From a virus: DNA of 64,000 nucleotides. Shown here one piece after another: positions 1,706-54,005 of this stretch. The stretch is from positions 37,504 through 101,503 of IMG/VR virus record IMGVR_UViG_3300012012_001194, one strand, 5' to 3'. A program made the position numbers and the translations under genes. The notes beneath the pieces were generated by a model. It worked only from the letters and a program-made list of their open reading frames with translations. It made no database searches and was not told the DNA's origin. How positions within the stretch are numbered: position 1 is the stretch's first letter; the number at the start of each line of letters is the position of its first letter.

Positions 1706-2947
1706 TTATCCAACGATGTCACGAACACACAGTTTAATCTGATTGCGCAAGTTTCTCTGTTGAGCGGTCTTAGCTTCGGTGAAGCTAAACTTACCAGCCC
1801 TACGATAAGCCTGAGCATATTTAATCAAGTTCACCAAATCGTTGGTTACTTGTCGTTTAGCGGAAGCCTGTTTGCCACCCATCATGGCAGGATCCATCAT
1901 AGCAGGATCCATCATGGCAGGATCCATAGGAGGAGCGCCGGCGTCTCCGCCACCACCGCCTTGTTGAATCATAGCAAGCAATTCTTCAGGGTTAATGCCT
2001 TGCTCTTGAAGGGCCATAAGCAACTCATGAGCAGCGTCGTCAGGGCTAGCACCAGCTTCTGGAGCGCCCTCGCCTTCGCCAGCCATCTGAGCCATCATTG
2101 AAGGATCTACATCCATTCCGCCTTGATCGCCTTCAGTTTCTTCTTCAGCAGCTGGGTCACCAGCTTCGTCAGAAGGGGCAGCAGCTTCGCCTTCAGCAGC
2201 CTTATAAAAAGCGGCTAAATAGCTTCCTACCATGGCGGCTTTTTCTAGGCCATCAGCGATAGTGGCTTCAATTGATCCAGCTACAGCGTCTTGAGCTAGC
2301 TTAGTCAATTGATATTCTTCTTCAGTCAAAGTAGCGGCAGCGGATCCCGCAGCAGCCATCTTTTTGGCCTTGGATTTTTCTTCTTCTTTTTCTTTATCCA
2401 TAGGCTTAGATGCGTCGCCCTTTGCTTGCATCTTTTTTTGGATAAAAGGGGGCATCGTCTCAGCCGCCTCTTTAATTGAGTAAGCTATGTCTGAAAGAAG
2501 GTCATTAGCTTTCTTCTCAGTAAGGCCCCTAAGTGTCCCGAAAGAAAGGGAGCTGTACTTTTCGCCTTCGCTAGTCTTAGCGGGGTGTGTAGTACCGGGA
2601 TCTTCTTTATCGCTCTTGTAGTTGTCTTCGTTAGCGGGGTCTTCGCCAGTTGAGGTGCTGGTGATGCCTACATTGAGCTGTTGATCTTCTTGTGAAGGAG
2701 AATCATCACTGGCGGAGTCTACTCCACCATTAAAGATGGTCTTCTTAACGTCAGATGTGTTTTCTTGTGAGCGTTGCCCTTCGCTAGCGGGTTGAGTGCC
2801 GTCATCAACGCTTTTGCTGGGGTGACTTGTGGCGCCGCCTTGGCTGCCGGGCTCAGTATTAGCTTCTGCGCGCTTCTTTACAGAAGCTTGTTTCTCGTTT
2901 TCAACTTCTGAGAGAAACTCTCGCAGCTGGTCAAATAGCTGTGGCAT
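1706..2947 (-). CDS. Putative scaffolding protein (acidic, low complexity, MDPAM repeats)
   Basis: 413 aa, acidic/disordered, between the protease-like gene and the MCP; many K-x-A motifs; RBS AAGGAG. Confidence 0.55.
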   Translation of the reverse strand: MPQLFDQLREFLSEVENEKQASVKKRAEANTEPGSQGGATSHPSKSVDDGTQPASEGQRSQENTSDVKKTIFNGGVDSASDDSPSQEDQQLNVGITSTSTGEDPANEDNYKSDKEDPGTTHPAKTSEGEKYSSLSFGTLRGLTEKKANDLLSDIAYSIKEAAETMPPFIQKKMQAKGDASKPMDKEKEEEKSKAKKMAAAGSAAATLTEEEYQLTKLAQDAVAGSIEATIADGLEKAAMVGSYLAAFYKAAEGEAAAPSDEAGDPAAEEETEGDQGGMDVDPSMMAQMAGEGEGAPEAGASPDDAAHELLMALQEQGINPEELLAMIQQGGGGGDAGAPPMDPAMMDPAMMDPAMMGGKQASAKRQVTNDLVNLIKYAQAYRRAGKFSFTEAKTAQQRNLRNQIKLCVRDIVG

Positions 2948-5581: not shown

Positions 5582-6940
5582 TTATTTCTTATCGTCTTCT
5601 TTTTTCTTGGATCGTGACGACGAGCCTCTAGCCATCACATCTTTTCTTAGGCTAGAGGTGTCTGACCTAGTGTTTTCAATGTCCAGCATCTGCTGCACAT
5701 CTGTAGGATCGATAGCGGCGTTACCACCTTCAAGCCTTTTTCTCAATAACGGCCTCATAATAGAGGTGTTAGTGGAAGAGTCGGGAGCAATGTTACTGAT
5801 CTCATTAAAGTGCATAGCTACGTCTTCTGGATGGTGCGCTCCAATGATGTCGTCATTGGCCATTAAGTCGGAAATGGCGGCGCTAGACCTGATGTTTTTA
5901 AGCATCATGTCTTGAGTAAGCTGGTCATTACGAAAACCGTAATCCTTAATTTCGTTACCAATATCCGACCCGCCAGACCTAGCTGCGTCCCAAGTGGACT
6001 TAGCTCGGCTCGCCAACGTAGCTGCCTGTGGAACAGATACCCCTGCGGCTTTCTTGTCCATACCGTCTAAGACTGAGCCGGTATACTCTACAGGCAATGA
6101 GTCAGAGAAGGCTGAAGAGATGGCTGAGCTAATCACCTTCTTAAGGTAGCCCACAGAAGCCGTTTTATTTAAATGAACTTCGGCTGCTTTAATGCACCCG
6201 TGGATCAAGTTGTAGGGAGCCGCTTTAAGTTCAACAGGGGCTGCAATGTCGGCCACGGTGCCAGCTTGTTTCTTAAAGGATTTGTTTGAGCTTGAGAGGA
6301 TGTTCAGCAAGGCTTCGGCCTTCTTACCGAAGAGCCTAACGCTGTTGTTCTGAACTACGGTAAAGGGCTTACCTCCAAAGGTTCTAAAGTAGCTGGCCAG
6401 CTTATTAATGCCGTCCATCATGCGATCCCTGCTTTGGGAGGAATCCGCACGTAGCTTCTCAGAGTTTCTACCTATCTTTTCGATCAAAGAGCTGATTGCC
6501 CTAGTGTGACCTAAGCCGTCACGCTCTAAGGGACGGTATCCACCCTTATCATCGGCTAACTTAGTAAGTGGCTTTAGTCCGACCTTCTCAGGTTCTGGGG
6601 CCCGGCGATAAGCGTCAGATATCAAAGTGTCACGCAGCAGGCTAGAGGCGGTCTTGACCCTGTCTGGGTAGACCGTGTCAATAACCGTCTTAAGGTCTGC
6701 CAGCTCAAATTCAGCAAGCTTCTCTAGCGGGTCTGCCCCCGATTGCCGCTGGGTCTCACTCCTACCGGTATTGTAGGCTCGAACCATGAGCTCTAGATGG
6801 CCGACGGGTACTCCATTTGAGGACGCTGTTTTTGCCAGCGCCTCATTCGGTGAGCAACCAGAGTTTACAAGCTCGGCTACCTCACTCAAAGAGTCCGTGA
6901 TTTTTGTTTCAGCTTCTTTGCTAAGCCTTGGTGTCGCCAT
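5582..6940 (-). CDS. Hypothetical protein (K-x-A rich, probably virion-associated)
   Basis: 452 aa ORF with repeated KTAS/KLA/KQA motifs. Confidence 0.7.
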   Translation of the reverse strand: MATPRLSKEAETKITDSLSEVAELVNSGCSPNEALAKTASSNGVPVGHLELMVRAYNTGRSETQRQSGADPLEKLAEFELADLKTVIDTVYPDRVKTASSLLRDTLISDAYRRAPEPEKVGLKPLTKLADDKGGYRPLERDGLGHTRAISSLIEKIGRNSEKLRADSSQSRDRMMDGINKLASYFRTFGGKPFTVVQNNSVRLFGKKAEALLNILSSSNKSFKKQAGTVADIAAPVELKAAPYNLIHGCIKAAEVHLNKTASVGYLKKVISSAISSAFSDSLPVEYTGSVLDGMDKKAAGVSVPQAATLASRAKSTWDAARSGGSDIGNEIKDYGFRNDQLTQDMMLKNIRSSAAISDLMANDDIIGAHHPEDVAMHFNEISNIAPDSSTNTSIMRPLLRKRLEGGNAAIDPTDVQQMLDIENTRSDTSSLRKDVMARGSSSRSKKKEDDKK

Positions 6941-8304: not shown

Positions 8305-11118
8305 TTACACGTTGTTGTCGTCTAGGCTGATGCCTTCGTCAGGGTACGAATCAATAGTCTTCTGCTTGAGGAACAGTAAGAGGTCGCCGAGCTGCTCAAA
8401 GGAGTTCCTAAGGTTGTCTTCAAGCTCAGGGATGTCCTTCTTGCCGTAGCGGTCTTCAAACTTATCTTTGTGCCAATAAAAGCTAAAGAGGATACGCCCA
8501 ATCTTGTCCAGCCCGCCCATAAGGTCGCCCAAGTGACGGTCTACCATCGTGTCATCACGGACAGACTTGATTAAAGTACCAATCATAGAAGTATCAAATA
8601 CGTCCTTTTGGCCGGACTGCGCCGCTTGGTAGCCAACAGCCATGGTATTAGGGTCAGGGAGCCTAGGGTCGTATATCGCTGAGTTTGACTGCAGCGATTG
8701 GCTGCTCATAGCAGGAAGTGCTTGCTGTTGAGGATAAGTAGATTGTACGCTGCCTAGCAACGTAGACTCCATACCCGAAGGTGGAGTTGGGAATGCAGGT
8801 GCAGAGGTGGAGCCCTGCATGGATGAATCAATAGGGTCGCCGGGAGCGGCTGACTTAATTAAATCCCCTGCGTCTTCTTTGGTAGGCAAGTGAACCCTGT
8901 AGTTTACTACCTTATTTTGTTTAGCCTCTTCAAGGATGGTTCTAGCTTGCTTCTCACGGAGAGAAGCGTCACGAACCAAGTGAATAAGAGCATCTTGAGG
9001 AGCCATTATCCTGCCGTTTACAGCAACCTCAGAACCAGTGTGCCGTACATTCAAAGAGGCCGTCTTTTGATAGATAGCGTGTTGAAGGTCGGTAAGGTTG
9101 CCTGGGGTTATAGAGCCGTCGCCGCTGCAGCAGTCTCCTGACAGCTTGATTACTTTAAAGCTACCAGGGATATAAAGGTCACCTTTAATAGCTTTGATGC
9201 GTACGCCTGGCTTTTCAGTAACGTAAAGTCTACGCCCGCCACCGATCAGACGTGGGCCGTAACTGCTCATATCGCAGTCGTCGTAAGAGCGCTTGGTTAT
9301 TACCTTGGGCAAGTAATCGGGTTTAGGCTGCGAGGCACTATCGTGATACATAACTCTGTAGTTTTTTGTGCCATCTGAAGAGCCTTCTACTTTGAGAACT
9401 TCAAAAGGTACGCTAGCGTCGCCGCTTTCGCTGACAGCCATATAAACGCTGCCCTTAGCTAGCGATGAGATCTCAGGGAGCTTCTCAAAGAACTTAGCGT
9501 AGCTGTCGCCGCTGTCTTTACTTTCTGGTGCGTCTTGCCCGCCGTCACGTGGTGGGCGGGTGAATAAGTTGCCTGGATGACTATTGATCCAGTTCTTCTC
9601 GCCTGCGTAGCTAACTACGGTAGCAAAGTCCTGACGACCGGAGGGGCCGTGAGGCATTAGGAAGATAACAGTCTTGAGCATGGAGAACGGGGATATAAGA
9701 AGGTCGTAGATCCCTGTCGTAGGCGGGTTCTCTATAGAGGTCGGCTCTTGAACTCTGTAAGCGATAGCGGCATCGTCCTTAGTTCTGGCATCTCTAAAGA
9801 TGACGCCGTCAGTAAGGAGCTTCTGCTTATCTGCTTCCGAAGAGTCCATGATACCGTCTGAGCCGTTATCAGAGGAGTTGAAGCTTCTTACAATAATAGT
9901 AAGGCCTTGCTTCTCTTGCGGCCTAAGGTACACAGACTCTTCAGATAACACGCCTGGCTCAGTAAGTGTACTTAGCTTAGCTACGGCGTCCTTAATAAAG
10001 GTGCCGCCACAAGCTTTATCAATAGCCTCTGCCATCTTAGGAAACTGCTGGCAGATATCGATGAGGCCCTTGACTAGTTCTCGGTAGCTGCTTTTATTAT
10101 GGGCCGCTTCTTTATTTAAGAATGACTTCAAAGTAAGCTTATTATCGTACTTAGGATCAAGCTCCGGATTAGTGCAAGCATGTTTAGCTAGCTGCCCAAT
10201 GCCGTCGAGCATTTCTTCTCTATCATCTGACCCAGCTTTGTAGCCGGCGGGTACTCCCATGCTTGCTCCACTGTTTCCAGGGTACTGCTGTCTCATGGGC
10301 TGTTGCATAGGGCTAGGGGCTGGACGTCTAGGGCCTTGCGTTCCTGTGCCGCCTTGTCCGCCGTTATATCCTGGAGTGCTCTTTGAAGGGTCCTTTGGAT
10401 CCTTGCGGTACTCTAGACCAGTGCCTCCGTGACCGCCATTCCATCCCGCTACGGTAGCGGCGGGGTCTGGCTTAGAGCGTGTAGGTTGGGTCATCCCATA
10501 GGCTTTATTAGAGGAGAAATTATTAGGGGCTGCACTGGGGTTTGCGTTGTCTTTGATGTTGATAGGAGGGAAGGCTTGCTTAGTATGGGAGGCAAACTTA
10601 GATGGCGGACGGCTGAACGCTTGAAGGTCAGGAGTAAGGAAGCCTAAACGGCTCATGTTTTGATCAGTCTTCTTACCAAGGCTGGCAGGCTTACGGCGTA
10701 AGATGTAGTTAAGCCAGTTTTCTTTAAGCGGTACGAATTGGTCTTGGTCTTTAAGATAGAGGAGCTCATGCCCTTTAAGGTCGCCATTAATAAAGAACAC
10801 AGGAGCGTAGAGCCACTGGGTTCCTACTTTAAAACCAAACAAGCCTACTGCTTTGGTGTTATCTTCATTGCGCTCCATTAGCTCAAACCCAACTTCATAG
10901 TCGAGAAGGCCTGGCGCTTTATCTTTTAAATAAGCATGGGCAAGGTTGCTAAATGCTTGCTCAAACTGAGTGTCGTTGCCTTCGCCACCAAGCTCAGCTT
11001 GCTTGACGAAGCCATTGATAGGGGGCAGTTCGATAAGAAACTTGTTATTATTGCTCATATTCTTAACCTTCCCTGGCTTAGAAATTAACATAGAGCCATT
11101 ATGCTCTTTATTTTCCAA
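8305..11118 (-). CDS. Large hypothetical protein (probably virion-associated; start uncertain)
   Basis: 937 aa; globular blocks separated by low-complexity linkers bounded by KQA/KFAS/KTAS/KSAA. Confidence 0.75.
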   Translation of the reverse strand: MENKEHNGSMLISKPGKVKNMSNNNKFLIELPPINGFVKQAELGGEGNDTQFEQAFSNLAHAYLKDKAPGLLDYEVGFELMERNEDNTKAVGLFGFKVGTQWLYAPVFFINGDLKGHELLYLKDQDQFVPLKENWLNYILRRKPASLGKKTDQNMSRLGFLTPDLQAFSRPPSKFASHTKQAFPPINIKDNANPSAAPNNFSSNKAYGMTQPTRSKPDPAATVAGWNGGHGGTGLEYRKDPKDPSKSTPGYNGGQGGTGTQGPRRPAPSPMQQPMRQQYPGNSGASMGVPAGYKAGSDDREEMLDGIGQLAKHACTNPELDPKYDNKLTLKSFLNKEAAHNKSSYRELVKGLIDICQQFPKMAEAIDKACGGTFIKDAVAKLSTLTEPGVLSEESVYLRPQEKQGLTIIVRSFNSSDNGSDGIMDSSEADKQKLLTDGVIFRDARTKDDAAIAYRVQEPTSIENPPTTGIYDLLISPFSMLKTVIFLMPHGPSGRQDFATVVSYAGEKNWINSHPGNLFTRPPRDGGQDAPESKDSGDSYAKFFEKLPEISSLAKGSVYMAVSESGDASVPFEVLKVEGSSDGTKNYRVMYHDSASQPKPDYLPKVITKRSYDDCDMSSYGPRLIGGGRRLYVTEKPGVRIKAIKGDLYIPGSFKVIKLSGDCCSGDGSITPGNLTDLQHAIYQKTASLNVRHTGSEVAVNGRIMAPQDALIHLVRDASLREKQARTILEEAKQNKVVNYRVHLPTKEDAGDLIKSAAPGDPIDSSMQGSTSAPAFPTPPSGMESTLLGSVQSTYPQQQALPAMSSQSLQSNSAIYDPRLPDPNTMAVGYQAAQSGQKDVFDTSMIGTLIKSVRDDTMVDRHLGDLMGGLDKIGRILFSFYWHKDKFEDRYGKKDIPELEDNLRNSFEQLGDLLLFLKQKTIDSYPDEGISLDDNNV

Positions 11119-43226: not shown

Positions 43227-43646
43227 TTAGCACTTCCACTTACGTAAAGCTTTATTGATTCGGCTATCTGGATCGTTAGCCGTCTCACTGGAAGTTAGCT
43301 TAGACTTCATGCCGCCCATACGAGCGCAGAAGCTATCTTTACGGGATCCACCCTCAGGCTGAGGCCTCTTAATGTCCTGCCCTTTAGCCTTTAAGCTCTT
43401 TCGGCCTTTCTCGTTTAGGCCGCCATCTGGGTTCTTGCCCTCAGCCTTCTGCCAAGCTTCTGAGGCTTTCTTTTCTGGCTTTTCTTCTTTCTTCTTTTTA
43501 CCTACAGGGCGGCAAGAGCCTTCAGTTAACGCAGCTGTGCCGGGCACTCGCTCGTAGCCAGTCCAGCACGCCGCAGACTTTAAAGTATCTGCTGCTTGCT
43601 TACCCATCATAGATCCAAACGCTACTGCCCTTTCTAATCTGTCCAT
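43227..43646 (-). CDS. Leader-A protein carrying CWxGY and AWQ..EGKN...SFCARM...W.C micro-domains
   Basis: N-terminus MDRLERAVAFGSMMGKQA; modules bracketed by KSA/KKAS; C-terminal module resembles (from memory) small basic domains of T4-like cyanophages. Confidence 0.7.
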   Translation of the reverse strand: MDRLERAVAFGSMMGKQAADTLKSAACWTGYERVPGTAALTEGSCRPVGKKKKEEKPEKKASEAWQKAEGKNPDGGLNEKGRKSLKAKGQDIKRPQPEGGSRKDSFCARMGGMKSKLTSSETANDPDSRINKALRKWKC

Positions 43647-43670
43647 ATTAAAATACCTCTACAATTAATT

Positions 43671-43686
43671 GTGGAGACGTCTCCAC
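43671..43686. repeat. Dispersed palindrome copy 7 (16 bp)
   Basis: Overlaps the TAG stop of 43686..44789. Confidence 0.95.
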
Positions 43687-44789
43687 TAACCTCTAGGAAC
43701 GTTAGGAACTTCGCCAGATAACGGTGGATTAGTTACATCTCCAGAAAATGTTGGTTTTTCTTTGTGGAGGAGGCCCTCTAGCACGCCTTTACCCTTCTCA
43801 AGCGCATGAGGCACCTTATGTAGTTGATGCTCTACTTGATGAACCCCCTTTGATCCAAGCCAGGCAGGTGCATTCTTCAAACTTGAGGGGGCGATAGATT
43901 GTGCTGATGGCAGCAAAGTCGACGCGCCTACGTGACCCGCTATGTGGGACGCGTTATGCGCAGCGGGGGCCGCCCACTCAGCGAAGGCTGGGGCTATTTT
44001 AGGAATTATCTTTCCTCCAAGGTACCCTGCGCCCGCACCTAGCGCTTCTCCTAGGGGGCCGGCGGCCGCCGTTGACGCTACGACCTGAGGTATTACTCCT
44101 GCGGTCTCATCCGCTACCCTTTGTTGTTCAGACCTATGAAACGCTACGCTATCTGGTTTAAGGTTCTGCCTGTCAGTGTAGGCTTGCTCGGTATAGTGCT
44201 TCATATTAGCCATCTCTTGATTCTTAGCACTTAGTGGAGGCCCACTAGGTTTGAAGGGGCTATTTGCGTTAGGGTTCACCTTACCTTCAAGCTGGTTTGT
44301 AGCTATTCGTTCGTTAGAAGGTCGGCTGCGCCTATCGTATATCATCTTCTCCCCTGGGTTCATCTGCTCTACCTGCTGCCAGGTCATTTTTTTGTTTGCT
44401 AAGTCAGCCTGTCGGGCCCAGTAAGTCGCCTCTTCATTAGTCTTATAGCGGGTAGAGCCGCCTTGAACAGGGGCTGGGTACTGCACATTAGCGGTACTAG
44501 GATTGCTCTTTTGAAAGTTGGCATATCCTTTAAGCAAGGAGTCTTGTGACCCTTGGTCAAACTTAGGGCGACCACCAGATAGATCCATACCCCCGCCATT
44601 ACCGCCAAGGCCGCTTGGTGGAGTAGAGTTTAGTGATGGCCCCTTGGGAGCAGCAGCGGGCTTGCCACCAGGGGTGCCCATAGATGCGGGGCCCGCAGCC
44701 CGTTTTAAAAGCCTGGCTAGCTTGCTTAAGCTGCTTGATCTCTTAAAGAACACATTATGGAGATTAGCCAACTTATTAAAACTACGCAT
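43686..44789 (-). CDS. Leader-B protein, low complexity
   Basis: N-terminus MRSFNKLANLHNVFFKRS; its TAG stop is part of a palindrome copy. Confidence 0.7.
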   Translation of the reverse strand: MRSFNKLANLHNVFFKRSSSLSKLARLLKRAAGPASMGTPGGKPAAAPKGPSLNSTPPSGLGGNGGGMDLSGGRPKFDQGSQDSLLKGYANFQKSNPSTANVQYPAPVQGGSTRYKTNEEATYWARQADLANKKMTWQQVEQMNPGEKMIYDRRSRPSNERIATNQLEGKVNPNANSPFKPSGPPLSAKNQEMANMKHYTEQAYTDRQNLKPDSVAFHRSEQQRVADETAGVIPQVVASTAAAGPLGEALGAGAGYLGGKIIPKIAPAFAEWAAPAAHNASHIAGHVGASTLLPSAQSIAPSSLKNAPAWLGSKGVHQVEHQLHKVPHALEKGKGVLEGLLHKEKPTFSGDVTNPPLSGEVPNVPRG

Positions 44790-44799
44790 GATTGATGCC

Positions 44800-46986
44800 T
44801 CAATAAGAATTAAAATTACCTAACTGCTTTAAAGTAGCGGAGAGCTTGATAAGGCTGCGGTTACGCATAGCCTCATAAGGGTCTCCTTCCATTCCAAGGG
44901 TCTGTGCCCATGCCGGCTCTGTGCCCATGCCATCTTGCTTTAGCTTGGAAGCGGCACTTACCAGTTCTGGATGCTGCTTAGCCAGAGAGTTGGCCACGTC
45001 CCTATGGGCTCTTGACCTCTCTATGAAGTCTGGATTGTCGGTAGCGTATAGCCCTACCTTCCTACCATACCCTGGAATGTTATATATAGACCTTTGATCT
45101 TTGTGCTCCGCCGTAGTTCCCTTGGGAAGCTTGTCCATAAGCCTATTATATTCAGGGCTCACGTACCCCACATCCACATCAGATAGGCCCCTTACATCAG
45201 GAAGGCCCCCGCTGACATGGTGAAGCTGGTCTCCATAGCCCTCGCCCATGTCCTTAACGAATTGGTGATACACTTCATCCTGAGAGGGGGTGGCAGCAAG
45301 CTTACTTACTGGTGACGCGGACATGGCTAGAGACTGAAGATGCTGCAAAGCTTTTAGCCTAGCAGCAGCAGCTGCGGGAGCCATGTAGTTAGTGTTGTTG
45401 TTCATGATATCAATAGCCTCAGCTGGGGTGTAGTAACCCCTGTTGGAGGCATTCCAGACATCTAAGTTCTTGTTACCTCTTCGGCCAGCAGCGTCCGCTA
45501 AAACAAAGTGTGTCCTGGACCCGGCAAAATTGCGCTTAACCTTGGCCCTATGAGCATCGCTCCAAGGGTGGTCTACGGGATCGATAGGTAGCAACCTCGG
45601 ATTCTTAGCCGTAATACCTGTCTCTTCCTTAAGCTCTCTCAAAGCAGCTACTAAAGGATCTTCCCCTGCTTCAATTCCTCCGCCTGGTAAGGCAAAGGAC
45701 TTGTCGCTATCCCAAGTGCCCCCATAGATCTTGCCTTTGGGGTTCTGAGTATAAACCTCAACCCTGTCTCGCCATGGGAGATCGCTAGCGGATAGCTTTA
45801 AAAGACTAGCAAGCTTGCTTACGGGCAGCGCTTCATCAAACTCAATATACTTAGAAGGTATCTTTCCCATAGGGGTAACGACGTGTGCGTGTGGAACGTC
45901 TGATGCGTAATACTTACCTTCTGTGTCCTTAAAGTCTTTCCACATGTCTTTTGGGTTTTGGCCCCTAGCTATCAAAGACTTAATCTCTTCAGGCGATAGA
46001 GTATGATGTCGTTTATTTACAAATTCATTCTGCCCTTTTTCGTCTAAGGCATCATAAGTCTCATCTGAGAACGGAATCAATTCGCTACCTTCCAGCTTGG
46101 TAGTGGGGTAGTCCTTCAATAGCTCATGTAAGTTAATTCTAGCTCTAGTAGTATCAAACCTCTTGATTGGGTGCTTATCGTGGATCTTCTCAGGGTCTGT
46201 GTCACCAAACAAAGCGGAAGGGCCATTATAGGAGGTTGTCCACGGAGACTTAGCTAGTCTTTCATCCCGTTCTTTGAGCCACCTGTCTGCATCACCATTA
46301 GGTCTGGCTATATCTAGCAAGTGTCTGTTCTCGGGTTTTGCTAACTCGTTACCTGATAACAGTCCGTGCTCTTTTACATTCTTAATAGATCCAGATGGAA
46401 TATAAGAGTGTAAATACATTGGATCCTCAGCTACGCCTGCCAGCTTACTCACCTCATTATCCTCAGTAACTTTCTTCTTCTTACACCCTACTGGGATATA
46501 GAACCCAAGTTGTGGAGACGTCTCCAATCCGTAGCTTCGTCGGATGGACTCTAGGTCATCGCTCTTAATAGAGATAGCCCATAGCTTGTCATAGTCACCG
46601 GTTGCAGGCAACTCAACTATAGGGCCAAGAGTGTAGTGATAAGAATGCCCTCGCTCAGTGATATGACTAGTGCCGCCTAGCTTGTCCACCTCTTCCTTGG
46701 TCATGACCTTGATAGCGCACTCAGTTCTATTGTTGCGCACAACGAATTCAGCCCCTGGCTCATCAAGGGCGTCAAAAACGCCTTTGATAAGCGAAGAGGG
46801 GACTGTTAGTTCTAGGTTGCCACTAGGACCTGCTTGAAGCCTACCTGCGAGAGCGTGCACTGAAGTATGATCTGCGTTCTTGTTCATGTATCCGTGAGAC
46901 TGCCCGTAAGTGAACATTTCAGCGTTGAGAGCTTTAAGCCACTCAGCGCCTTTGATGATTCCTAAAGATAGCGGGGGCATGGTCAT
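44800..46986 (-). CDS. Four-domain polyprotein: degenerate 2H-phosphoesterase-like / ART-like / Nudix hydrolase / nucleotidyltransferase-like
   Basis: Clear Nudix box GGGIEAGEDPLVAALRELKEETG; other domains are tentative; domains are separated by repeated VSKLA linkers. Confidence 0.65.
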   Translation of the reverse strand: MTMPPLSLGIIKGAEWLKALNAEMFTYGQSHGYMNKNADHTSVHALAGRLQAGPSGNLELTVPSSLIKGVFDALDEPGAEFVVRNNRTECAIKVMTKEEVDKLGGTSHITERGHSYHYTLGPIVELPATGDYDKLWAISIKSDDLESIRRSYGLETSPQLGFYIPVGCKKKKVTEDNEVSKLAGVAEDPMYLHSYIPSGSIKNVKEHGLLSGNELAKPENRHLLDIARPNGDADRWLKERDERLAKSPWTTSYNGPSALFGDTDPEKIHDKHPIKRFDTTRARINLHELLKDYPTTKLEGSELIPFSDETYDALDEKGQNEFVNKRHHTLSPEEIKSLIARGQNPKDMWKDFKDTEGKYYASDVPHAHVVTPMGKIPSKYIEFDEALPVSKLASLLKLSASDLPWRDRVEVYTQNPKGKIYGGTWDSDKSFALPGGGIEAGEDPLVAALRELKEETGITAKNPRLLPIDPVDHPWSDAHRAKVKRNFAGSRTHFVLADAAGRRGNKNLDVWNASNRGYYTPAEAIDIMNNNTNYMAPAAAAARLKALQHLQSLAMSASPVSKLAATPSQDEVYHQFVKDMGEGYGDQLHHVSGGLPDVRGLSDVDVGYVSPEYNRLMDKLPKGTTAEHKDQRSIYNIPGYGRKVGLYATDNPDFIERSRAHRDVANSLAKQHPELVSAASKLKQDGMGTEPAWAQTLGMEGDPYEAMRNRSLIKLSATLKQLGNFNSY
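46513..46526. repeat. Dispersed palindrome copy 8
   Basis: Inside the polyprotein, read in a different frame (LETSP). Confidence 0.95.
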
Positions 46987-46989
46987 TGA

Positions 46990-47625
46990 TTAGTCCAGTA
47001 TTACTCTTTTGTTTGGTATTGTTTTGTTGGTAGGCATAGTTTTAGGCGTTTGCCGCTGGCCCATAGGCGCTGGTGGCATCTTCTGCTTCCCGCCTGCGCC
47101 AGGCAAAGGCCTCTGACCTTGTTGTCCGCCATTAGGTGTAAACGTGGCTCTAGGCTTAACCTTTCCACCCTGTATGGTGCCTTGATATGATCCATTGCCT
47201 GCATTACCAGTAGCGTTTTGTAGCTTATTCATGTTAGCTTTCTCTTCGGCTTGATCTTCAAAGACATCTTTAAAGGCTGGGTCATTACGCAAGCTATAGC
47301 GAGGCGTAGCAGCTGGGGTGCCTTGCGCTCCGCTTGGTTGAGTTTTAAAGCCTTTCTGATCATAGCCCGCCTGAGGAGTGAATTGAGCTCCTTCAGTTCT
47401 GTACCCTCCTTTACCGTCAGGGAATACTCTTCCAGTGGCAGTGCCGCCACCAGGGCCGCTGACGCCGGCCGCTGATCTAAGCGCAGCCGCCTGCGCTCGC
47501 GCGTTTGCTATCTCTTGTTCCTGCTGTTTCTTATAAAAGTCTAAAGCTGGGTTACCTGCCTTCTTGTAGAAGGCCATCTTACCCATCATCGCACCAAACG
47601 CTGCTGCTTTTTCTAGTCTGTTCAT
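46990..47625 (-). CDS. Leader-A protein, G/Q/P-rich
   Basis: N-terminus MNRLEKAAAFGAMMGKMA. Confidence 0.75.
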   Translation of the reverse strand: MNRLEKAAAFGAMMGKMAFYKKAGNPALDFYKKQQEQEIANARAQAAALRSAAGVSGPGGGTATGRVFPDGKGGYRTEGAQFTPQAGYDQKGFKTQPSGAQGTPAATPRYSLRNDPAFKDVFEDQAEEKANMNKLQNATGNAGNGSYQGTIQGGKVKPRATFTPNGGQQGQRPLPGAGGKQKMPPAPMGQRQTPKTMPTNKTIPNKRVILD

Positions 47626-48302
47626 TAAAATAACCTCTTAGGTGTTTTACTTTCCATAACAGGGGCGGTGGCCGGCTTAGGAGTCGCATTAGCTGGAGCA
47701 GGGCTATTCTGTGTGTTTGATCCAGGCTTCGGTAAGAAGCTAGCAGCATTTGGGTTTGTGTAACTGCTTGATTGAATTTCCCTGTCTGTTCCTTTGTCTT
47801 TTACGGCCTGAGCTTTGGCGTTATCGGATACCTTCTGCTTCCATCTTTGCATTGCTGTCGAAGGGGCGCCTTGTGGACTACCCTGAGCACCGCCTTGAGT
47901 AGTAACAGAAGACCAATCTATGTTGTTACTCGTGGGCTGCTGCCCTTGAGGTGTAAAAGTAGCTCCAGGCTGAACTACTCCTTGCCTAATTGTACCAGTG
48001 GCTGTGCCTGAGCCGTAAGCGCCAGCAGCTGATCTCACTGCATCGCCTTTGCTTTTTAGGCCCTGTCGAGTCTTATAGATGTCATTCTCTCTGGGAGAGT
48101 AAGCCTTACCGTCTATGGGCGCAGGCCTAGGTAAGTTATCAGCGGTGTACCTTGGCTGTTGAGCGGGCTGATTTCCTTTAGGCAGAAAATCTCCTGCATT
48201 GGGGGCAGTCCATGTATCTCCAGCTGCTAGCTTCCCCATCATCGCTCCAAACGCTGCTGCTTTTTCTAGTCTGTTCATTAAAATAACCTCTTAGGTGTTT
48301 TA
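47582..48302. repeat. ~68-bp direct repeat (47582-47649 / 48235-48302) covering RBS plus leader A
   Basis: One mismatch; includes 5' sequence AAACACCTAAGAGGTTATTTTA-ATG. Confidence 0.9.
47625..48278 (-). CDS. Leader-A protein, paralogue-like of 46990..47625
   Basis: MNRLEKAAAFGAMMGKLA; shares RSAAG...GTATG and GTI..G.V.P.ATFTP with its neighbour. Confidence 0.75.
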   Translation of the reverse strand: MNRLEKAAAFGAMMGKLAAGDTWTAPNAGDFLPKGNQPAQQPRYTADNLPRPAPIDGKAYSPRENDIYKTRQGLKSKGDAVRSAAGAYGSGTATGTIRQGVVQPGATFTPQGQQPTSNNIDWSSVTTQGGAQGSPQGAPSTAMQRWKQKVSDNAKAQAVKDKGTDREIQSSSYTNPNAASFLPKPGSNTQNSPAPANATPKPATAPVMESKTPKRLF

Positions 48303-48312
48303 TTTATCATAG

Positions 48313-49734
48313 CTATCTACTCGGACCATAAGGGTAACCGCCGTATGGTAGGTAACTTCCATCTTGCTGTGGGTATGTTATAAACCCTTTTGCATTAAAT
48401 TTTGGGCCAGGCTTAACTAGGCCATAACGTTCAGGAAATTTAGCCCTTAATGCAGCTCTACCAGCATCAGGATCGGCTTCATTATATGGTAAATCTAGGT
48501 TCTTACGAAAGTGGGCTTCTGCGGCATCGGCGGCTTCGTTATTAAAATTTCTAATGTTAGGATTATTCAAATCAATTCGGTCAAGATTGTCTTTATCGGA
48601 TTTAGATTTAGATAGTATTTGCTGCAGAAATTTCTGTCCTGCCGGTGCGTGTAAATCTCCAATCTTGTATTTCTTTGCTAATTCGGCCATCTCTCTATAA
48701 TCCATATCCATGCCTGGAGCAAAGCTGTGAGTCCCTTCCATATGCTTGCCAGTTACATCTTTAAAAGCTCTAGAACCTTGACCAATTTCATTCCAAGTTG
48801 CCCCTAACTCCTGAACTGCACGTAGGTCATCTGGCTGTAGACGGTCCCCGGACATTCCCGGAATGCGTGTGCGTATAGGTTTGCCGCTTGAATCAGTATA
48901 AGCCGTGCCTTTAAAATCATCTTGATAGGCCGCATGACCAAGTTCGTGGAGTCTTACGTTGTTTTGAGCGACAAAGCTGTCTGGGTAACCATTCTTTTTT
49001 TGCCTAGGCCCACCCCACCCAGCCGGAGAGTATGCATACTGAACAGCATATGGATTAACCCCTTTAGGCCTAATATCAGTATTCATAATGCCCGGCTTTT
49101 CTCCTGGCTTTGTTTTACCTATCGGCGGCGGCGGCCTTAGGAAATTAGAATGCGGCTCAGAGTTGCCTACTATTTGGTTACGACTCCAACTACCAGGCGT
49201 CAGCCTAGGAGGACCGTACCCTTTACTAGGCCACTCTACATGCGATATAGGGGCTTGATTTGATTGCTCATCGCTTATATCCCCCATCCTTTTATTCCAA
49301 TCATCAAACTTATTAGCGTCTTTAAGCTGATTAGTCAGATTTGTATGAAAAGAGTACCTTGCCTGGCCTAATGTTGAAGGGGCGCCTTTAAACCGCTCTT
49401 CAGTTGCAGGGTCCAACCCTCTACTATAGTTCCATCTCATAGCGTTATTAACCGCATCGGTGCGGGGGAATAGTCCATCGCCCTGGTATCCCGAAGGTAG
49501 CCTTGGTTGATCAGTGGCTCCACGTAATGCCCCAGCTGGGTTTATAGCTCTTCCACGTAATTGCATGTTAGGGTAGCTGTTACCCTTAAGCTGTACTTTG
49601 GCAGACGGCTCTGCAGAGCTTTCAGGAGAGCTCTTAGTCTGCTTAGGAAAAAAAGCAGCATCTGCGTGCTTAAGCAAGGCTGCTCTCTTCCCCATCATGA
49701 CCCCAAAGGCTACTGCTTTTTCTAGTCTGTTCAC
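48313..49734 (-). CDS. Leader-A protein with zincin-like metallopeptidase motif
   Basis: GTG start, MNRLEKAVAFGVMMGKRA; RLHELGHAA...QELGA. Confidence 0.7.
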   Translation of the reverse strand: MNRLEKAVAFGVMMGKRAALLKHADAAFFPKQTKSSPESSAEPSAKVQLKGNSYPNMQLRGRAINPAGALRGATDQPRLPSGYQGDGLFPRTDAVNNAMRWNYSRGLDPATEERFKGAPSTLGQARYSFHTNLTNQLKDANKFDDWNKRMGDISDEQSNQAPISHVEWPSKGYGPPRLTPGSWSRNQIVGNSEPHSNFLRPPPPIGKTKPGEKPGIMNTDIRPKGVNPYAVQYAYSPAGWGGPRQKKNGYPDSFVAQNNVRLHELGHAAYQDDFKGTAYTDSSGKPIRTRIPGMSGDRLQPDDLRAVQELGATWNEIGQGSRAFKDVTGKHMEGTHSFAPGMDMDYREMAELAKKYKIGDLHAPAGQKFLQQILSKSKSDKDNLDRIDLNNPNIRNFNNEAADAAEAHFRKNLDLPYNEADPDAGRAALRAKFPERYGLVKPGPKFNAKGFITYPQQDGSYLPYGGYPYGPSR

Positions 49735-52016
49735 TATGCGTAGCCTCCTGCTTGGGGTTTCATAACTCCACCCTTAACGATAGACAGTAACTGTAGTATG
49801 GCTTTATCAGAGAGTGACTTGTTCTTCATCAAGGTTGGTAGGTTCTTCCTAAGAATATCACCACCAGGGTTTCTTCCAGCTTCTTCTAACGCCTTCCGTG
49901 CCTTTTCTGGGGTATCTATTAGAATGTTCTTACCTTTAGCCCATTCTCGTTTGATCTCTGCTAGGTGAGCTTTAAACTCTTCTGGATCTAGGACGTACTT
50001 TAATTGGTCTAAATTAAGTCCTGTACGAACCTGATCGGCAATGCTCATCACTGGTTTTTCTAACAGCTTACCGTCATGTAACGCTGCGTGACTAAGCTCG
50101 TGTCGAAGGACTGTTAGTTGCTTCGCAGCACCTTGCCATAGCTTAGAGTAAGGGTTAATTCTGACGTCGCCTTCCGTTCGTGTGCCTAGGTATGGCCTCC
50201 CCTTGAAGGTAGTAATCCCGCCTAAACCATCATTGTTCCTAGATTCCTCTGGCCAGTCCGCTCTTCGGTTACTTACCGATATGAGTTTATCAAGAGCACT
50301 GGGTAGCCAAGTAACTAGCCCGCTTTTTCCAGCAGCTTCTTGATGAGGTTGCGCAGAGCTAACAGCCTTTTCTAACCCCCCTGGTACACCCTTATAAGCA
50401 TCCTCTAAGAAAGGACGAAGACTCGCCGTAGCTCTCGTCTCGGGCGGTAATGCTAAGCCCTCCATAACTGTCGGTGTGGGTTCATAAGGGTTCTTAGCGG
50501 GTTGGCCAGGGATATAAGGGCTTCTAGGGCCGCTAGCTGCGTTAGCTACGCCTGAAAGGCCACCTATAAGGCCGCCAGCAAAACCGCCTATGCCTAAGCC
50601 AGTCATGCCGCCATGAAAGGCGCCAGACAAAATGCCCCTACGCTTATATAGGAGGTTGCCATCGTCATCAACATAGTAAGGCTTCTTAGTTCCATGCTCA
50701 TCTTTGTAAAAGCCACGCCTATTTGAAGGGCCTTCTGTCTCTAACTCTTCAGAAAAGCCGGGGTTTATAGCGCCTATCAATCCACCGCCAAGAGCGCCAA
50801 TACCACCGCCTACAAGAAAACCACTAGCAGCTGGCGATAAGTCACCGCCACCGCCACCTCCGCGCCTAGCGTACTTCATAGCAGCTTGCTTGCCCATCAT
50901 TGCTCCAAACGCCGCTGCTTTGTTTAACTTACCCATGGACTTATCCTTTGATGTTTGTTTGTTCTTAACCTTTGCCTTTATGGTTTCCCTTAGTGCCTCA
51001 ATCTGCCTAAGCGCTTCGTCCTTTGGAATATTATGCTCGCTGGAGTAGGCCCCAGCATACTCATCCATGTATTTCTTTATAGCCTGCTCATTTCCCAAAG
51101 CCTCCCTCTCGCCATAAGACTTACCCAAAGAGGCCCCTAGGTTACCGCCGGTTATTGCACCTGCAAGGCCACCCACAGCAGTTCCTAGCGCTCCTAATTG
51201 TGGAAAAACAGGAAGGCTGTTCGCACCCATAGCATAAGCCAAAAGAGGTGGGCCAGCTAGGCCAAGGGCCCCACCAGCTACAGTGCCAAGCGCACCGCCA
51301 ATGCCAGATCCCCAGTAGCTACCAAGGCCCATAGGCTTAAGCCTAGCTGCCTGCTCTAGGGTCCTGGTTAGTAGTTCTGGGTTAAGCTTAGTCTTTGCAG
51401 CGCCTGTTAACAGGCGGTCTTTACCTTTACGCCATGCTGCGTGCTCTTGCCATAGGCTTGGAGAGAAGGTTTGGTACGCAGACGCCATCGTCCTTCTTAA
51501 AAGGCTGTCCTTAGGATACTCGTTAAAGTCTATTGCGTGCCCAAGCTCGTGCATCATCACGCCGGGGTTGCCAGAGGGGAGCCAGACGTTGTCAGCGGTG
51601 TAGTGATAAGCATCAGGCATTGACTGCGTAGTGACAGAGGTAGGGCCTTCAAAGGATTTAACTATCGTGCCGTCTTCATTTATCGTGAACCTGCCCTCGC
51701 CCTCTCCAAAGTTATCCACTTCCATGCCGTATGGGTTTTCGTAGTTTGCCTTATAACGCGCTGAGTTTCTAGGATTAGCGTTAACCCTAGCCTCCATGTC
51801 ATTTAATCTAGTTCCGTTGAGTTCTACCCTCGTGTTGTCTAGCGCACCATGGAGAGAGCCCGCCTGCATAGCGTTAGCTAGCAAAGTAGCGTCGTTTAAC
51901 TTAACCGCAGCAGAGGGTTTATTAGACATGGAAGGGAAGTCGGGCTGCCTGACTCTTTTATCAAACAGCTGCTCAACTTCTACAGCTTCTTTAGTTAACG
52001 GAGGTAGCCTGCGCAT
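49734..52016 (-). CDS. Polyprotein with two zincin HExxH modules, glycine zippers and an internal leader A
   Basis: MHELGHAID, RHELSHAA; internal MGKLNKAAAFGAMMGKQAA. Confidence 0.7.
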   Translation of the reverse strand: MRRLPPLTKEAVEVEQLFDKRVRQPDFPSMSNKPSAAVKLNDATLLANAMQAGSLHGALDNTRVELNGTRLNDMEARVNANPRNSARYKANYENPYGMEVDNFGEGEGRFTINEDGTIVKSFEGPTSVTTQSMPDAYHYTADNVWLPSGNPGVMMHELGHAIDFNEYPKDSLLRRTMASAYQTFSPSLWQEHAAWRKGKDRLLTGAAKTKLNPELLTRTLEQAARLKPMGLGSYWGSGIGGALGTVAGGALGLAGPPLLAYAMGANSLPVFPQLGALGTAVGGLAGAITGGNLGASLGKSYGEREALGNEQAIKKYMDEYAGAYSSEHNIPKDEALRQIEALRETIKAKVKNKQTSKDKSMGKLNKAAAFGAMMGKQAAMKYARRGGGGGGDLSPAASGFLVGGGIGALGGGLIGAINPGFSEELETEGPSNRRGFYKDEHGTKKPYYVDDDGNLLYKRRGILSGAFHGGMTGLGIGGFAGGLIGGLSGVANAASGPRSPYIPGQPAKNPYEPTPTVMEGLALPPETRATASLRPFLEDAYKGVPGGLEKAVSSAQPHQEAAGKSGLVTWLPSALDKLISVSNRRADWPEESRNNDGLGGITTFKGRPYLGTRTEGDVRINPYSKLWQGAAKQLTVLRHELSHAALHDGKLLEKPVMSIADQVRTGLNLDQLKYVLDPEEFKAHLAEIKREWAKGKNILIDTPEKARKALEEAGRNPGGDILRKNLPTLMKNKSLSDKAILQLLSIVKGGVMKPQAGGYA

Positions 52017-52027
52017 CGCTCACTTCC

Positions 52028-53080
52028 TTATTTGCCGTGAACTGGAGGAGCACCAGGTATCCCGGCTTTGGCGCCCTGCCACGCAAGACTACCCAGATGT
52101 GCATAGGCGTTGCCAGTGCCCCGAAGCAAGCCCAGGGAGGCGCCCCCGACAGGTAACATAGTCGCAACGGCCCCTAAAGCGTTAGCGTCATCCTGCACAT
52201 CCTGCTTAATAGCTTCACCTTTAACGCCTTTAGTAGTTGGGGCACTTTTATCTTGTCGATAGTCCCGTCTAAAATCATTGTAATTGCCCATCTCTCGTTG
52301 CTTGTCAGACAGGCCTGGGACGTTGTTGTAAGGTCCGGATTTTCCAGTAAGAGTATCGTTAACTTTAGAGTTAAAGCTAGCGTCAGCCTGCTGCTTAGCA
52401 AAGGCTGAGTTTATTTGCCCCTGCTCTGGGCTAGGGTTGTGGATGTTGTACTGAGGAGGCGCTTGTGGATCTCTTGGAGCAAAGCCTTGAAAGGGGTTTG
52501 TGTTTGCTGCAGGCCCGCCAGTGCTTCGCCCAGAGGACGCTCCACCAGCGCCAGGCCCCCTAGGTGGAGTGGCCGGTACTCCATTGGGAGTACCCATTTG
52601 CTGGCCAGTGCCGGCTCTCTTCCCCATCATTGCTCCAAACGCTGCTGCTTTTTCTAGTCTGTTCATAGCTTTTATATACTCCGGTGGAATTAAATCAGTA
52701 ACGTAGTGCTCGTCGTGCCCGCCTAGCCCCTTGGCTAACTCGTGAACCTTGAAGTCGCTAGGAAGATCTATTCTTAAAGGAGGCGCTGGAGTTCCTTGAG
52801 CTAACATTTGACGAATCCAGCCTTTACCTTCTTCTTTTGCTTTGGCCATAGCTGATGTTTTGGCGGCCATATTGGCGTAAAATTCAGCGTATGAAGGCGA
52901 GGTTGTAAGAAATAGCTTGGGTCTAGGATCTTTCTCGTTCAACCCAGGCAAAGTGCCGCCACCGCCCCCCACGTAACTTGGGTCAAGCCCTGTACGTAAA
53001 ATACTATCTATTCGGTCTGGATACGTGCCGTGATAGAACGTTCTAAACTTGTTTTCAGGTTCCGCAAGCGGCTCAGCCAT
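52028..53080 (-). CDS. ADP-ribosyltransferase-like domain fused to a leader-A module
   Basis: FYHGT......I...GL.P, LFLTTS..YA.FYA, E......IPPEYI, then MNRLEKAAAFGAMMGKRA. Confidence 0.65.
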   Translation of the reverse strand: MAEPLAEPENKFRTFYHGTYPDRIDSILRTGLDPSYVGGGGGTLPGLNEKDPRPKLFLTTSPSYAEFYANMAAKTSAMAKAKEEGKGWIRQMLAQGTPAPPLRIDLPSDFKVHELAKGLGGHDEHYVTDLIPPEYIKAMNRLEKAAAFGAMMGKRAGTGQQMGTPNGVPATPPRGPGAGGASSGRSTGGPAANTNPFQGFAPRDPQAPPQYNIHNPSPEQGQINSAFAKQQADASFNSKVNDTLTGKSGPYNNVPGLSDKQREMGNYNDFRRDYRQDKSAPTTKGVKGEAIKQDVQDDANALGAVATMLPVGGASLGLLRGTGNAYAHLGSLAWQGAKAGIPGAPPVHGK

Positions 53081-53092
53081 AGACTAATACCC

Positions 53093-53515
53093 TTACGCTG
53101 CATCTTGGTTAGAAACTATACTAAGTCCGCCGTTATCCAATCTACGTCTTAAAGACCTAAGCTCATCCTCTAATTGAATGACCTTAGTTCTTAGCTCGTC
53201 GTTCTCCTTACGACAGTTACGCCTGTCGTTGTAGAGTTCTTCTATGTCCTTCTTAAGGTTCTTCATCTCTTCCCTTAGGAAGGTCTGCATGTCTTTGGAT
53301 GACTCTACTATGAGTCGGTACTCGCTGAAGAGCGTATCATTCTCATGGTGCTCTAAGCGCTGCTTCTTAAAGATGATCTCTTTGGTCTTTATGTCAGCTT
53401 CCTTTGCCGCTTTAAGCTTATTTACATAAATAAAGGAAATGGCCCCCGCAAGGGAGCCAGCAGCACCAAATAGAATGCTTATCGCAGACAATATGATGTC
53501 TAGCTTAAAGTCCAT
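53093..53515 (-). CDS. N-terminal TM plus coiled-coil protein (holin-like architecture)
   Basis: Start MDFKLD at 53515, after GAGGAG. Confidence 0.55.
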   Translation of the reverse strand: MDFKLDIILSAISILFGAAGSLAGAISFIYVNKLKAAKEADIKTKEIIFKKQRLEHHENDTLFSEYRLIVESSKDMQTFLREEMKNLKKDIEELYNDRRNCRKENDELRTKVIQLEDELRSLRRRLDNGGLSIVSNQDAA

Positions 53516-53543
53516 AATGTTAGACTCCTCAAAACAATTAAGA

Positions 53544-54005
53544 TTAATACTTCCTTGGGGGAGCATTGTTTACATCGTTGAAGGTGTCAGGATTAGCTTT
53601 AGGAGATTTGAACATTTTACCCATCATGTTTTTAACATCCGGAGCTACCGCTCCCGCTGCCATAGCGCCTGGAACCAAAACGTTCTTGTTAGCTGCAGCT
53701 AGGATAGGATTGCCGCCGTTTCTTGGGTTCATCATGCCGCCTAGGAAGCCAATACCGGCGTTTGCAGCACTATGAGCTCCTTCAAGCCTTCGTTTAAAAT
53801 CGTATATCCCATCACCGTTTGGTCCTAGTTGTGATTGTATGAACGGCCCTACTGCGTCTTCAATCCCCTTGCTGACCCTACCGCTAATATTAGACCCCAT
53901 TGTTTTAAGTTGGTCAGCAGGTGTTGGCTGACCCGCCATTGGAGGGTTTGCAGCCCTCTTAAAGAACACCCTATGAAGATTTGCTAACTTATTGAAACTG
54001 CGCAT
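53544..54005 (-). CDS. Leader-B protein
   Basis: Start MRSFNKLANLHRVFFKRAA at 54005, homologous to the start of 43686..44789. Confidence 0.7.
   Translation of the reverse strand: MRSFNKLANLHRVFFKRAANPPMAGQPTPADQLKTMGSNISGRVSKGIEDAVGPFIQSQLGPNGDGIYDFKRRLEGAHSAANAGIGFLGGMMNPRNGGNPILAAANKNVLVPGAMAAGAVAPDVKNMMGKMFKSPKANPDTFNDVNNAPPRKY

Follow-up and report, generated by a model that had tools for sequence, protein, structure and literature searches.

The window analysed here is the last 64 kb (64,000 nucleotides, nt) of a 101.5-kb IMG/VR virus record (IMGVR_UViG_3300012012_001194) from an uncultured freshwater jumbo phage that encodes a multisubunit RNA polymerase. Between 43.2 and 54.0 kb of this window, ten minus-strand genes follow one another head to tail, and six of them bear the same 18-residue peptide, leader A, with the consensus M-N-R-L-E-K-A-A-A-F-G-A-M-M-G-K-x-A. 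Leader A is swapped between proteins as one unit, and its conservation breaks off at K-x-A. A first-pass annotation of this DNA had proposed that leader A targets diverse cargo to the capsid, and the portable leader, a gp21-fold protease and K-x-A sites conserved in head proteins all fit that idea, while its details of a single motif and of the origin of a DNA repeat are corrected below. New here are the bipartite structure of the leader, a second leader (leader B), the swap of one leader for the other, the presence of the motif Phi-x-K-x-A (Phi, hydrophobic residue) at domain junctions, and the link that this motif makes to head proteins. With somewhat better than even confidence, and by analogy, we read leaders A and B as a T4-like capsid-targeting and cleavage tag on a shuffled array of effectors.

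Leaders A and B and their exchange between proteins

The leader copies in the window are listed with coordinates, strand in brackets, and the protein that carries them, with protein lengths in amino acids (aa).

43593..43646 (-), leader A, N-terminal, 139-aa protein (43227-43646); profile E 1.9e-16
47572..47625 (-), leader A, N-terminal, 211-aa low-complexity basic protein (46990-47625); pattern and profile
48225..48278 (-), leader A, N-terminal, 217-aa protein (47625-48278); ribosome-binding site (RBS) and leader DNA near-identical to those of the 211-aa gene
49681..49734 (-), leader A, GTG start, N-terminal, 473-aa protein (48313-49734); pattern and profile
50883..50936 (-), leader A, internal, residues 361-378 of the 760-aa protein (49734-52016); pattern and profile
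52613..52666 (-), leader A, internal, residues 139-156 of the 350-aa protein (52028-53080); pattern and profile
44736..44789 (-), leader B copy M-R-S-F-N-K-L-A-N-L-H-N-V-F-F-K-R-S, 367-aa protein (43686-44789); DNA repeat family D2, bipartite spacing as in leader A
53952..54005 (-), leader B copy, 162-aa open reading frame (ORF; 53544-54032, likely true start 54005); DNA repeat family D2

The four N-terminal and two internal copies of leader A named in the first-pass annotation were all recovered by two routes. A degenerate DNA pattern run over the 101.5-kb record found exactly six copies and none in the reversed control, and a 23-column profile scored the six at E 2e-16 to 8e-13. In an all-versus-all short-peptide search of the 97 ORFs of the record, 15 pairs of leader A copies scored 41-56 bits and the single leader B pair 54 bits, with the next-best peptide at 31.6 bits. 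Outside the leader the bearing proteins show no likeness to one another, as had been described for most of them, the exception being the paralogous 211- and 217-aa proteins (30% identity). A weaker copy that had been placed within 14379-15875 is present at 14882 (V-N-K-S-A-A-F-A-A-R-L-G) and keeps the first half-motif, but it is not significant; absent from the leader profile search results at E <= 10, it is at best a relic.

The near-identity of the RBS-plus-leader DNA in two neighbouring genes, reported earlier as about 68 bp with one mismatch, is real and forms part of a longer repeat (47573-47658 versus 48226-48311) that is 92% identical over 86 nt. It had been taken as a sign of recent module shuffling; both copies head paralogous genes, so the repeat reflects tandem duplication or gene conversion. 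Codon comparison among the leader A copies gave a ratio of nonsynonymous to synonymous substitution rates (dN/dS) of about 0.1-0.3 with many synonymous differences, and the 40 nt upstream of the leader are unrelated in 14 of the 15 copy pairs. Taken together, these values indicate that selection acts on the leader peptide and not only on its DNA, and the dN/dS rules out a mere RNA or DNA element. The last eight codons of the 217-aa gene (K-T-P-K-R-L-F-stop; 47626-47658) are themselves a copy of the non-coding RBS region that precedes this gene, so that a duplicated RBS-plus-leader cassette now provides its C-terminus.

Leader A carries two Phi-x-K-x-A motifs, L-E-K-A-A at residues 4-8 and M-G-K-x-A at residues 14-18, spaced ten residues apart. 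The leader does end at K-x-A, as first described, but the motif is double rather than single. Leader B (M-R-S-F-N-K-L-A-N-L-H-R-V-F-F-K-R-A) has its two motifs, F-N-K-L-A and F-F-K-R-A, at the same positions.

Related phages were located by a pattern scan of viral contigs together with a search using the neighbouring membrane protein, which yielded five related IMG/VR contigs of 93-190 kb. Each has a syntenic array of 4-6 leader-A genes, bounded on one side by the membrane/coiled-coil protein and leader-B genes and on the other by a 2H-phosphoesterase protein. A search for further relatives through the conserved membrane protein returned the same five contigs only. The leader profile search of genome and relatives that had been suggested as a check thus gave six copies here and 4-6 in each related contig.

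A profile search of 5.8 billion proteins extended this picture to about 100 leader-A proteins of 83-1143 aa, in which 109 distinct leader copies were counted (71 N-terminal and 38 internal, with at most three per polypeptide). Information content reaches 3-4 bits at K6, A7, A8, F10, G11, M14, G15, K16 and A18; conservation stops after residue 18-19 and is below 1 bit from residue 20 on. When these proteins were split at their leaders, the pieces formed 24 module clusters. At least 20 cargo families are represented, and several of these are found behind N-terminal and internal leaders alike, in different proteins. The families of ADP-ribosyltransferase (ART)-like domains and zincin N-modules lie mostly upstream of a leader, and the N-module family of the 760-aa protein does so in 15 of 20 database members. 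Internal copies that have lost M-N-R-L-E retain the core K-A-A-x-F-G-x-M-M-G-K-x-A. Half-leaders, in which M-N-R-F-E-K-A-A is followed by other sequence, also occur among the database copies, and one database relative (P0038) corresponds to the 350-aa protein of the window with its leader split into two halves by an inserted 103-aa module.

Leader B is found on 74 database proteins with varied cargo, always at the N-terminus and never together with leader A. One cargo is found under either leader: a leader-B protein (P0265) and a leader-A protein (the G004 protein) are 88% identical over 227 aa, and the switch between them is exact, with the leaders exchanged up to residue 18, right after K-x-A.

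The leader motif in the head module

Over the genome as a whole, Phi-x-K-x-A clusters in the head module and in the array. An N-proximal copy is found in 8 of 11 array ORFs versus 9 of 67 ORFs elsewhere (Fisher p = 1e-4), and an excess of plain K-x-A within the cargo was sought and not found, the sites there being those of leaders and junctions only. The head module lies at the start of the window, and its proteins were compared with those of a distant cultured relative, Salmonella phage Arash (OQ632216.1).

1..654 (-), major capsid protein gene, 3' part, with its start 275 nt before the window; M-E-K-R-A at residues 23-27
1706..2947 (-), 413-aa head-module protein with 11 K-x-A; candidate scaffold or core substrate
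3094..4521 (-), 475-aa protein with a predicted N-terminal T4 gp21-like/assemblin-fold prohead protease domain and a helical C-terminal half, 14 K-x-A; AlphaFold 2 (AF2) model and fold match
5582..6940 (-), 452-aa head-module protein with 13 K-x-A confined to the first 300 residues; K-x-A count and conservation
8305..11118 (-), 937-aa head-module protein with 11 K-x-A; homologue of Arash gp218 (annotated virion protein)

In four of these proteins K-x-A is 2.3-3.4 fold more frequent than expected, with observed and expected counts of 11 and 4.5 (413-aa), 14 and 6.0 (475-aa), 13 and 3.8 (452-aa) and 11 and 4.8 (937-aa). The observed number was reached in 0 of 300 shuffles for the 413-, 475- and 452-aa proteins and in about 1% for the 937-aa protein, and no enrichment of A-x-K, K-A or K-x-x-A was seen in the same four. 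The residue at position -2 is L or F in 22 of the 49 K-x-A sites. Among homologues of the 452-aa protein, about ten K-x-A sites are conserved in position while their middle residue varies.

The AF2 model of the 475-aa protein had a mean predicted local distance difference test score (pLDDT) of 79, and its top three Foldseek matches were all 5JBL, the structure of the T4 prohead protease gp21 used for fold comparison. With VIA-align, residues 16-230 superposed on 5JBL_B over 140 aligned residues (Z 8.5, root-mean-square deviation 3.3 A), and herpesvirus proteases came next at Z 3.5-4.5. By this model, the head module encodes a gp21-type prohead protease. From their conservation, we infer candidate catalytic residues in the invariant H61 and S164 and the near-invariant H210 and H213. 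The protease domain also contains an inserted four-cysteine cluster (C174, C177, C188 and C193, all invariant). The family comprises more than 1,100 database proteins. Across 37 diverse homologues there are on average 14.4 K-x-A (10-18 per member) against 3.7 A-x-K, and the enrichment is 3.5-4 fold in all 37, with 7.3 observed versus 2.1 expected in the N-terminal half and 7.1 versus 1.8 in the C-terminal half. Two of the sites are invariant among the 37.

Arash gp222, annotated as a "structural protein", is the homologue of the 475-aa protein. Three further Arash proteins, gp220 (145213-146136), gp223 (148209-148976) and the ORF at 174466-175335, are rich in K-x-A, with 8-10 sites versus about 3 expected, nearly all with a hydrophobic residue at position -2. 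The Arash capsid protein gp226 has L-V-K-E-A at residues 25-29, where the capsid protein of the window has M-E-K-R-A at residues 23-27, a candidate maturation site. These sequence patterns suggest that Phi-x-K-x-A is the recognition site of the gp21-like prohead protease, and the 475-aa protein is the probable enzyme that reads it. The capsid-targeting reading of the leaders draws on this gp21-fold protease together with K-x-A conserved in the protease itself, in three other head proteins and at the capsid N-terminus, including that of Arash.

Cargo modules, fused proteins and the surroundings of the array

The same motif is found where no leader is present. One array gene encodes a large multi-domain protein in which three V-S-K-L-A sites lie between domains.

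44800..46986 (-), 728-aa multi-domain ("polyvalent"-type) protein with 2H-SAK-like, NUDIX and DUF4269 domains; Pfam
46438-46452, 45808-45822 and 45295-45309 (-), V-S-K-L-A junctions between domains of the 728-aa protein, at residues 179, 389 and 560

The NUDIX (46.3 bits) and DUF4269 (37.1 bits) matches of this protein exceed the Pfam cut-offs, whereas the 2H-SAK match (20.5 bits) is below its 27-bit cut-off. In the relatives, stand-alone 2H proteins end three to four residues past V-S-K-L at site 179, and a 559-aa form ends at site 560. As these gene ends match the V-S-K-L-A sites, the motif marks the boundaries of modules that can be fused or split. Phi-x-K-x-A is thus also an inter-module junction in fused multi-domain proteins, and there is overlap between the leader system and "polyvalent proteins".

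Almost none of the cargo could be named by sequence searches against Pfam, PHROGs, NCBIfam and the PDB. The 139-aa protein combines a Cys-containing basic module with DUF6321 (PF19846) at residues 70-137 (59.3 bits versus a gathering threshold of 28.5). Modules of the DUF6321 type also form the C-terminus of very basic proteins of 530-856 aa in T4-like cyanophages, where they are encoded beside terminase genes. In Synechococcus phage ACG-2014f (KJ019141.1; 3859-6429), a protein with the Cys-module and DUF6321 lies between gp16 and gp17, and in S-P4 (1765-3354) one directly follows the small terminase gene and is annotated "T4-like structural protein, T4-GC0119". An apparent full-length match of the 139-aa protein to that of ACG-2014f was rejected, as there is no true leader in the latter and the homology is limited to the Cys-module and DUF6321. 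Neither the motif strings nor DUF6321 turned up in a literature search.

The array encodes three HExxH modules, one in the 473-aa protein (at residue 263) and two in the 760-aa protein, which consists of an N-terminal HExxH and glycine-zipper module, the internal leader, and a C-terminal glycine zipper with the second HExxH. The 350-aa protein has an ART-like N-domain (52667-53080), the internal leader, and then low-complexity/glycine-zipper cargo. The N-domain had no sequence match in Pfam, NCBIfam or the PDB. Leads came from a structure atlas, in which it falls into clusters with PARP, Tox-ART-HYD1 and RNA 2'-phosphotransferase (scores 0.90-0.92, TM 0.53), and the AF2 model of the 350-aa protein (14-row alignment, pLDDT 33) is too low in confidence to establish an ART fold or a leader helix. 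An ART fold of the H-Y-E type or Tpt1-like is therefore only a lead. No MuF or portal domain was detected in the array proteins by domain searches, which leaves the shared motif as the sole connection to the head. Cysteine is absent from seven array proteins (2,540 aa in total), as it is from the RNA polymerase block, and the Arash homologues of that block rank among the most abundant proteins of the virion (PMC10585845).

A scan of the array for promoters and terminators gave no signal exceeding shuffled controls. Searches with the 473- and 728-aa proteins (tblastn) and with the whole array (megablast) gave zero matches in 50,697 phage records.

Two neighbouring genes recur with the array. 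The protein at its edge is the membrane protein used in the search for relatives.

53093..53566 (-), transmembrane and coiled-coil protein; conserved, at the array edge in all relatives

In the five relatives this protein is 55-96% conserved and invariably borders the leader array; a partner of the leader system or a lysis protein are possible roles. A class-I S-adenosylmethionine (SAM) methyltransferase-like gene (54355-54918, -) adjoins the array and lies beside the 2H-SAK protein in two relatives (L025:6917-7474; L026:19084 onward). Just past the array, a 976-aa protein (55762-58692, -) has zero cysteines, no family match and no N-proximal motif. At residue 108 it shares the peptide S-G-D-V-S-T-(T)-K-Q-A-D-L with the N-terminus of a SNF2 protein (16730-18223) at 31 bits, and G-S-G-D-V-S-T-K-P is found in a leader cargo of one relative (L026:7524-8207). 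The G-D-V-S-T core is the translation of a palindrome that recurs in the genome, one copy of which lies just upstream of the 139-aa leader gene (43671-43686).

A proposed packaging route, its rivals and its meaning

In the proposed mechanism, leaders A and B would act as a short propeptide or junction peptide marking hypervariable effector-type modules for incorporation into the prohead. Leader-tagged proteins would be produced together with the head proteins, and the leader would dock them onto the scaffold or core. The protease would then trim the leader and cut fused multi-module proteins at the same motif, and the freed cargo would stay in the head and enter the host with the DNA. Cargo delivered in this way would include ART-like, zincin, NUDIX/2H, P-loop kinase, DUF6321, glycine-zipper and basic low-complexity modules. 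The cut may fall after K, by analogy with the T4 site, or after A, which leaves the predicted new N-termini uncertain by two residues. A further and more doubtful suggestion is that leaders A and B form a two-letter addressing code that sorts cargo to two places in the capsid or to two times of release, with the leader DNA doubling as a recombination handle; this would allow plug-and-play assembly, fusion, splitting and swapping of injected effector modules, much as in polymorphic toxin loci.

The closest known counterpart is that of T4. The T4 gp21 site is hydrophobic-x-Glu, cut after Glu, and the T4 capsid-targeting sequence (CTS) is not known to have any sequence likeness to leader A or B, so that only a functional analogy is claimed. 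T4 IPI-III and Alt share only a short N-terminal CTS that is removed by the prohead protease gp21, and cuts at the same motif, present in many copies, also occur in the T4 scaffold and in gp21 itself (PMC3012670, PMC7411985, PMC9958956; the CTS work of Mullaney and Black 1996 is taken as cited in these). In both systems, diverse non-essential proteins from adjacent genes have nothing conserved but a short N-terminal peptide of about 10-20 aa. The T4 peptide ends at the prohead protease motif and the leader ends at Phi-x-K-x-A, the predicted specificity of the protease here. Both also have a protease of the gp21 fold, a protease gene and scaffold-type proteins holding many copies of the motif, and cargo with an ADP-ribosyltransferase, which here is only the ART-like lead. 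The leader system differs in its motif (hydrophobic-x-K-x-A instead of hydrophobic-x-E), in its bipartite leader of two classes, and in leaders that also occur internally, up to three per protein, where they join fused modules. Packaging and cleavage are proven for T4, whereas the leader system is known from sequence alone.

Peptides and domains that address cargo are also known from encapsulins and from toxins of temperate phages. The cargo-loading peptides of encapsulins are short, conserved, rich in small and hydrophobic residues and basic at their end, and they bring unrelated cargo into an HK97-fold shell; unlike the leaders, they are usually C-terminal and uncleaved, and no protease, DNA genome or ejection is involved. 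In the MuF-domain polymorphic toxins of temperate phages and in polymorphic-toxin cassettes, recombination exchanges variable C-terminal effectors behind an N-terminal addressing part that stays constant, but this part is a whole structural domain (MuF) rather than an 18-aa peptide, and there is no protease motif at the junction.

The polyvalent proteins of Iyer et al. 2017 (PMC5512222), as far as the portions of that paper drawn on here describe them, resemble the leader system in their repertoire of 2H phosphoesterase, NUDIX, zincin-like HExxH, ART-like and kinase domains. They also resemble it in their extreme mosaicism, their fused and split forms, and their predicted delivery with the DNA and proteolytic processing. 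Polyvalent proteins hold 2-15 conflict-related domains per polypeptide, and the domains of the 728-aa protein, the two HExxH modules of the 760-aa protein and the up to three leader-delimited modules of relatives fall within this range. In contrast, modules of the leader phages are mostly separate small genes. MuF fusions are mentioned for polyvalent proteins in those same portions of the paper, and no MuF or portal fusion was seen here, nor are virion genes the neighbours of the array. A defined short motif and leader delimiting the modules are not described in these portions, and the motif of the leader phages matches the sites of a head protease rather than a built-in peptidase. In SPN3US and phiKZ, propeptides of ejection proteins are cut by gp245/gp175 at A-x-E (PMC7411985, PMC5694885, PMC10052503). 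These, too, are jumbo myoviruses that carry an RNA polymerase and a large mass of ejection proteins in the virion. A short protease motif is where their N-terminal propeptides are cut off, and a role in targeting proteins to the prohead has been proposed for these propeptides. At 111-130 aa, however, the propeptides are long, and they have no portable sequence in common; their motif differs, and no array of leader-tagged, shuffled cargo is described.

A number of observations weigh against the reading of the leaders as capsid-targeting and cleavage tags. Packaging, cleavage and injection of the leader proteins are steps that we infer by analogy, and both a docking element and a mere cleavable linker fit the tests made. 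The array lies about 40 kb away from the head genes and is flanked by sugar-modifying enzymes, and the 139-aa leader protein has four cysteines. The folded protease domain itself contains seven K-x-A sites, an uncommon place for cleavage sites in an enzyme that does not destroy itself. The leader A profile gave no match at E <= 10 in the only cultured relatives, Arash and Vibrio phage D69, a shared short-peptide search in Arash found tail-fibre repeats only and no comparable leader, and no Arash homologues of the array proteins were found; accordingly, the Arash virion proteome cannot test leader or cargo. Finally, Arash gp220 and gp223 were detected in virions at 96-100% sequence coverage (PMC10585845), and such near-full coverage is not as expected from complete degradation and loss of fragments.

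This coverage of K-x-A-rich virion proteins would suit a leader that is a docking peptide without cleavage, binding the inner surface of the capsid or the scaffold and staying on its cargo, with K-x-A as part of the binding motif. Residues A7, F10, G11, M13 and G15, outside the motif, are as conserved as the motif itself, as for a binding helix, and internal leaders, up to three per protein, fit multivalent docking. We nevertheless consider this unlikely: in relatives, genes end at the motif, and conservation stops directly past K-x-A, both typical of processing sites, while the 10-18 motif copies in the protease family and the N-terminal propeptide position in the capsid protein would be left unexplained. 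It is also improbable, in our judgement, that the leader is a cleavable linker only, at which the prohead protease or the zincins of the array cut polyvalent effectors whose incorporation is decided otherwise. A linker of this kind would account for the motif at module junctions and for the coexistence of fused and split versions of the same modules, and the three HExxH modules of the array would be in keeping with the metallopeptidase self-processing proposed for polyvalent proteins (PMC5512222). Yet the 71 of 109 copies at the extreme N-terminus have nothing upstream to release, and a linker gives no reason for 18 conserved residues in two classes or for the sharing of the motif with the gp21-like protease and scaffold-like proteins.

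The leader could alternatively be a recombination or gene-start cassette, with the RBS-plus-leader DNA serving as a homology patch for cargo swapping, as in polymorphic-toxin loci, and the peptide having little function. The 68 nt with one mismatch between neighbouring genes, the insertion of a 103-aa module exactly between half-leaders in P0038, the resemblance of half-leaders to recombination products and the swap of leaders A and B on one cargo are all consistent with such a cassette, but a dN/dS of 0.1-0.3 with many synonymous differences shows the peptide to be selected, the 40 nt upstream are unrelated in 14 of 15 pairs, and internal copies without M-N-R-L-E keep the core. As a replacement for the targeting reading it is very unlikely, and a cassette role can coexist with that reading instead. 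Least probable of all is another reader of the motif, either a lysine-modifying or cross-linking enzyme acting on Phi-x-K-x-A or, for proteins bound for the host envelope, an amphipathic membrane-targeting helix. The methyltransferase-like gene adjoins the array here and in relatives and could supply such an enzyme, many of the cargo modules are glycine zippers, and the leader has a face of small residues (A7, G11, G15) beside F10, M13 and M14. Neither version explains why genes end at the motif, why conservation stops so abruptly or why the capsid site is shared with Arash, and the ART-like, NUDIX, 2H and kinase modules need NAD, nucleoside triphosphates or RNA, which points to action in the cytoplasm.

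If the reading of leaders A and B as capsid-targeting and cleavage tags is true, the 18-residue tag and five-residue motif would provide a listing, made from sequence only, of capsid-carried and injected proteins in an uncultured group of jumbo phages. The at least 20 cargo families, almost all without known function, would be prime candidates for host take-over or anti-defence proteins. It would also predict a cleavage code for a gp21-like protease family of more than 1,100 members, testable in cultured Salmonella phage Arash, and an exchangeable packaging tag could load foreign proteins into phage capsids, given a cultivable member or a transferable protease-scaffold pair. Should the more doubtful two-letter code also be true, any tagged metagenomic protein could be read as a virion-delivered effector. 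The system would also join two ideas treated separately until now, T4-style capsid-targeting leaders and mosaic "polyvalent" effectors, in which the same motif delimits modules whether these are separate or fused.

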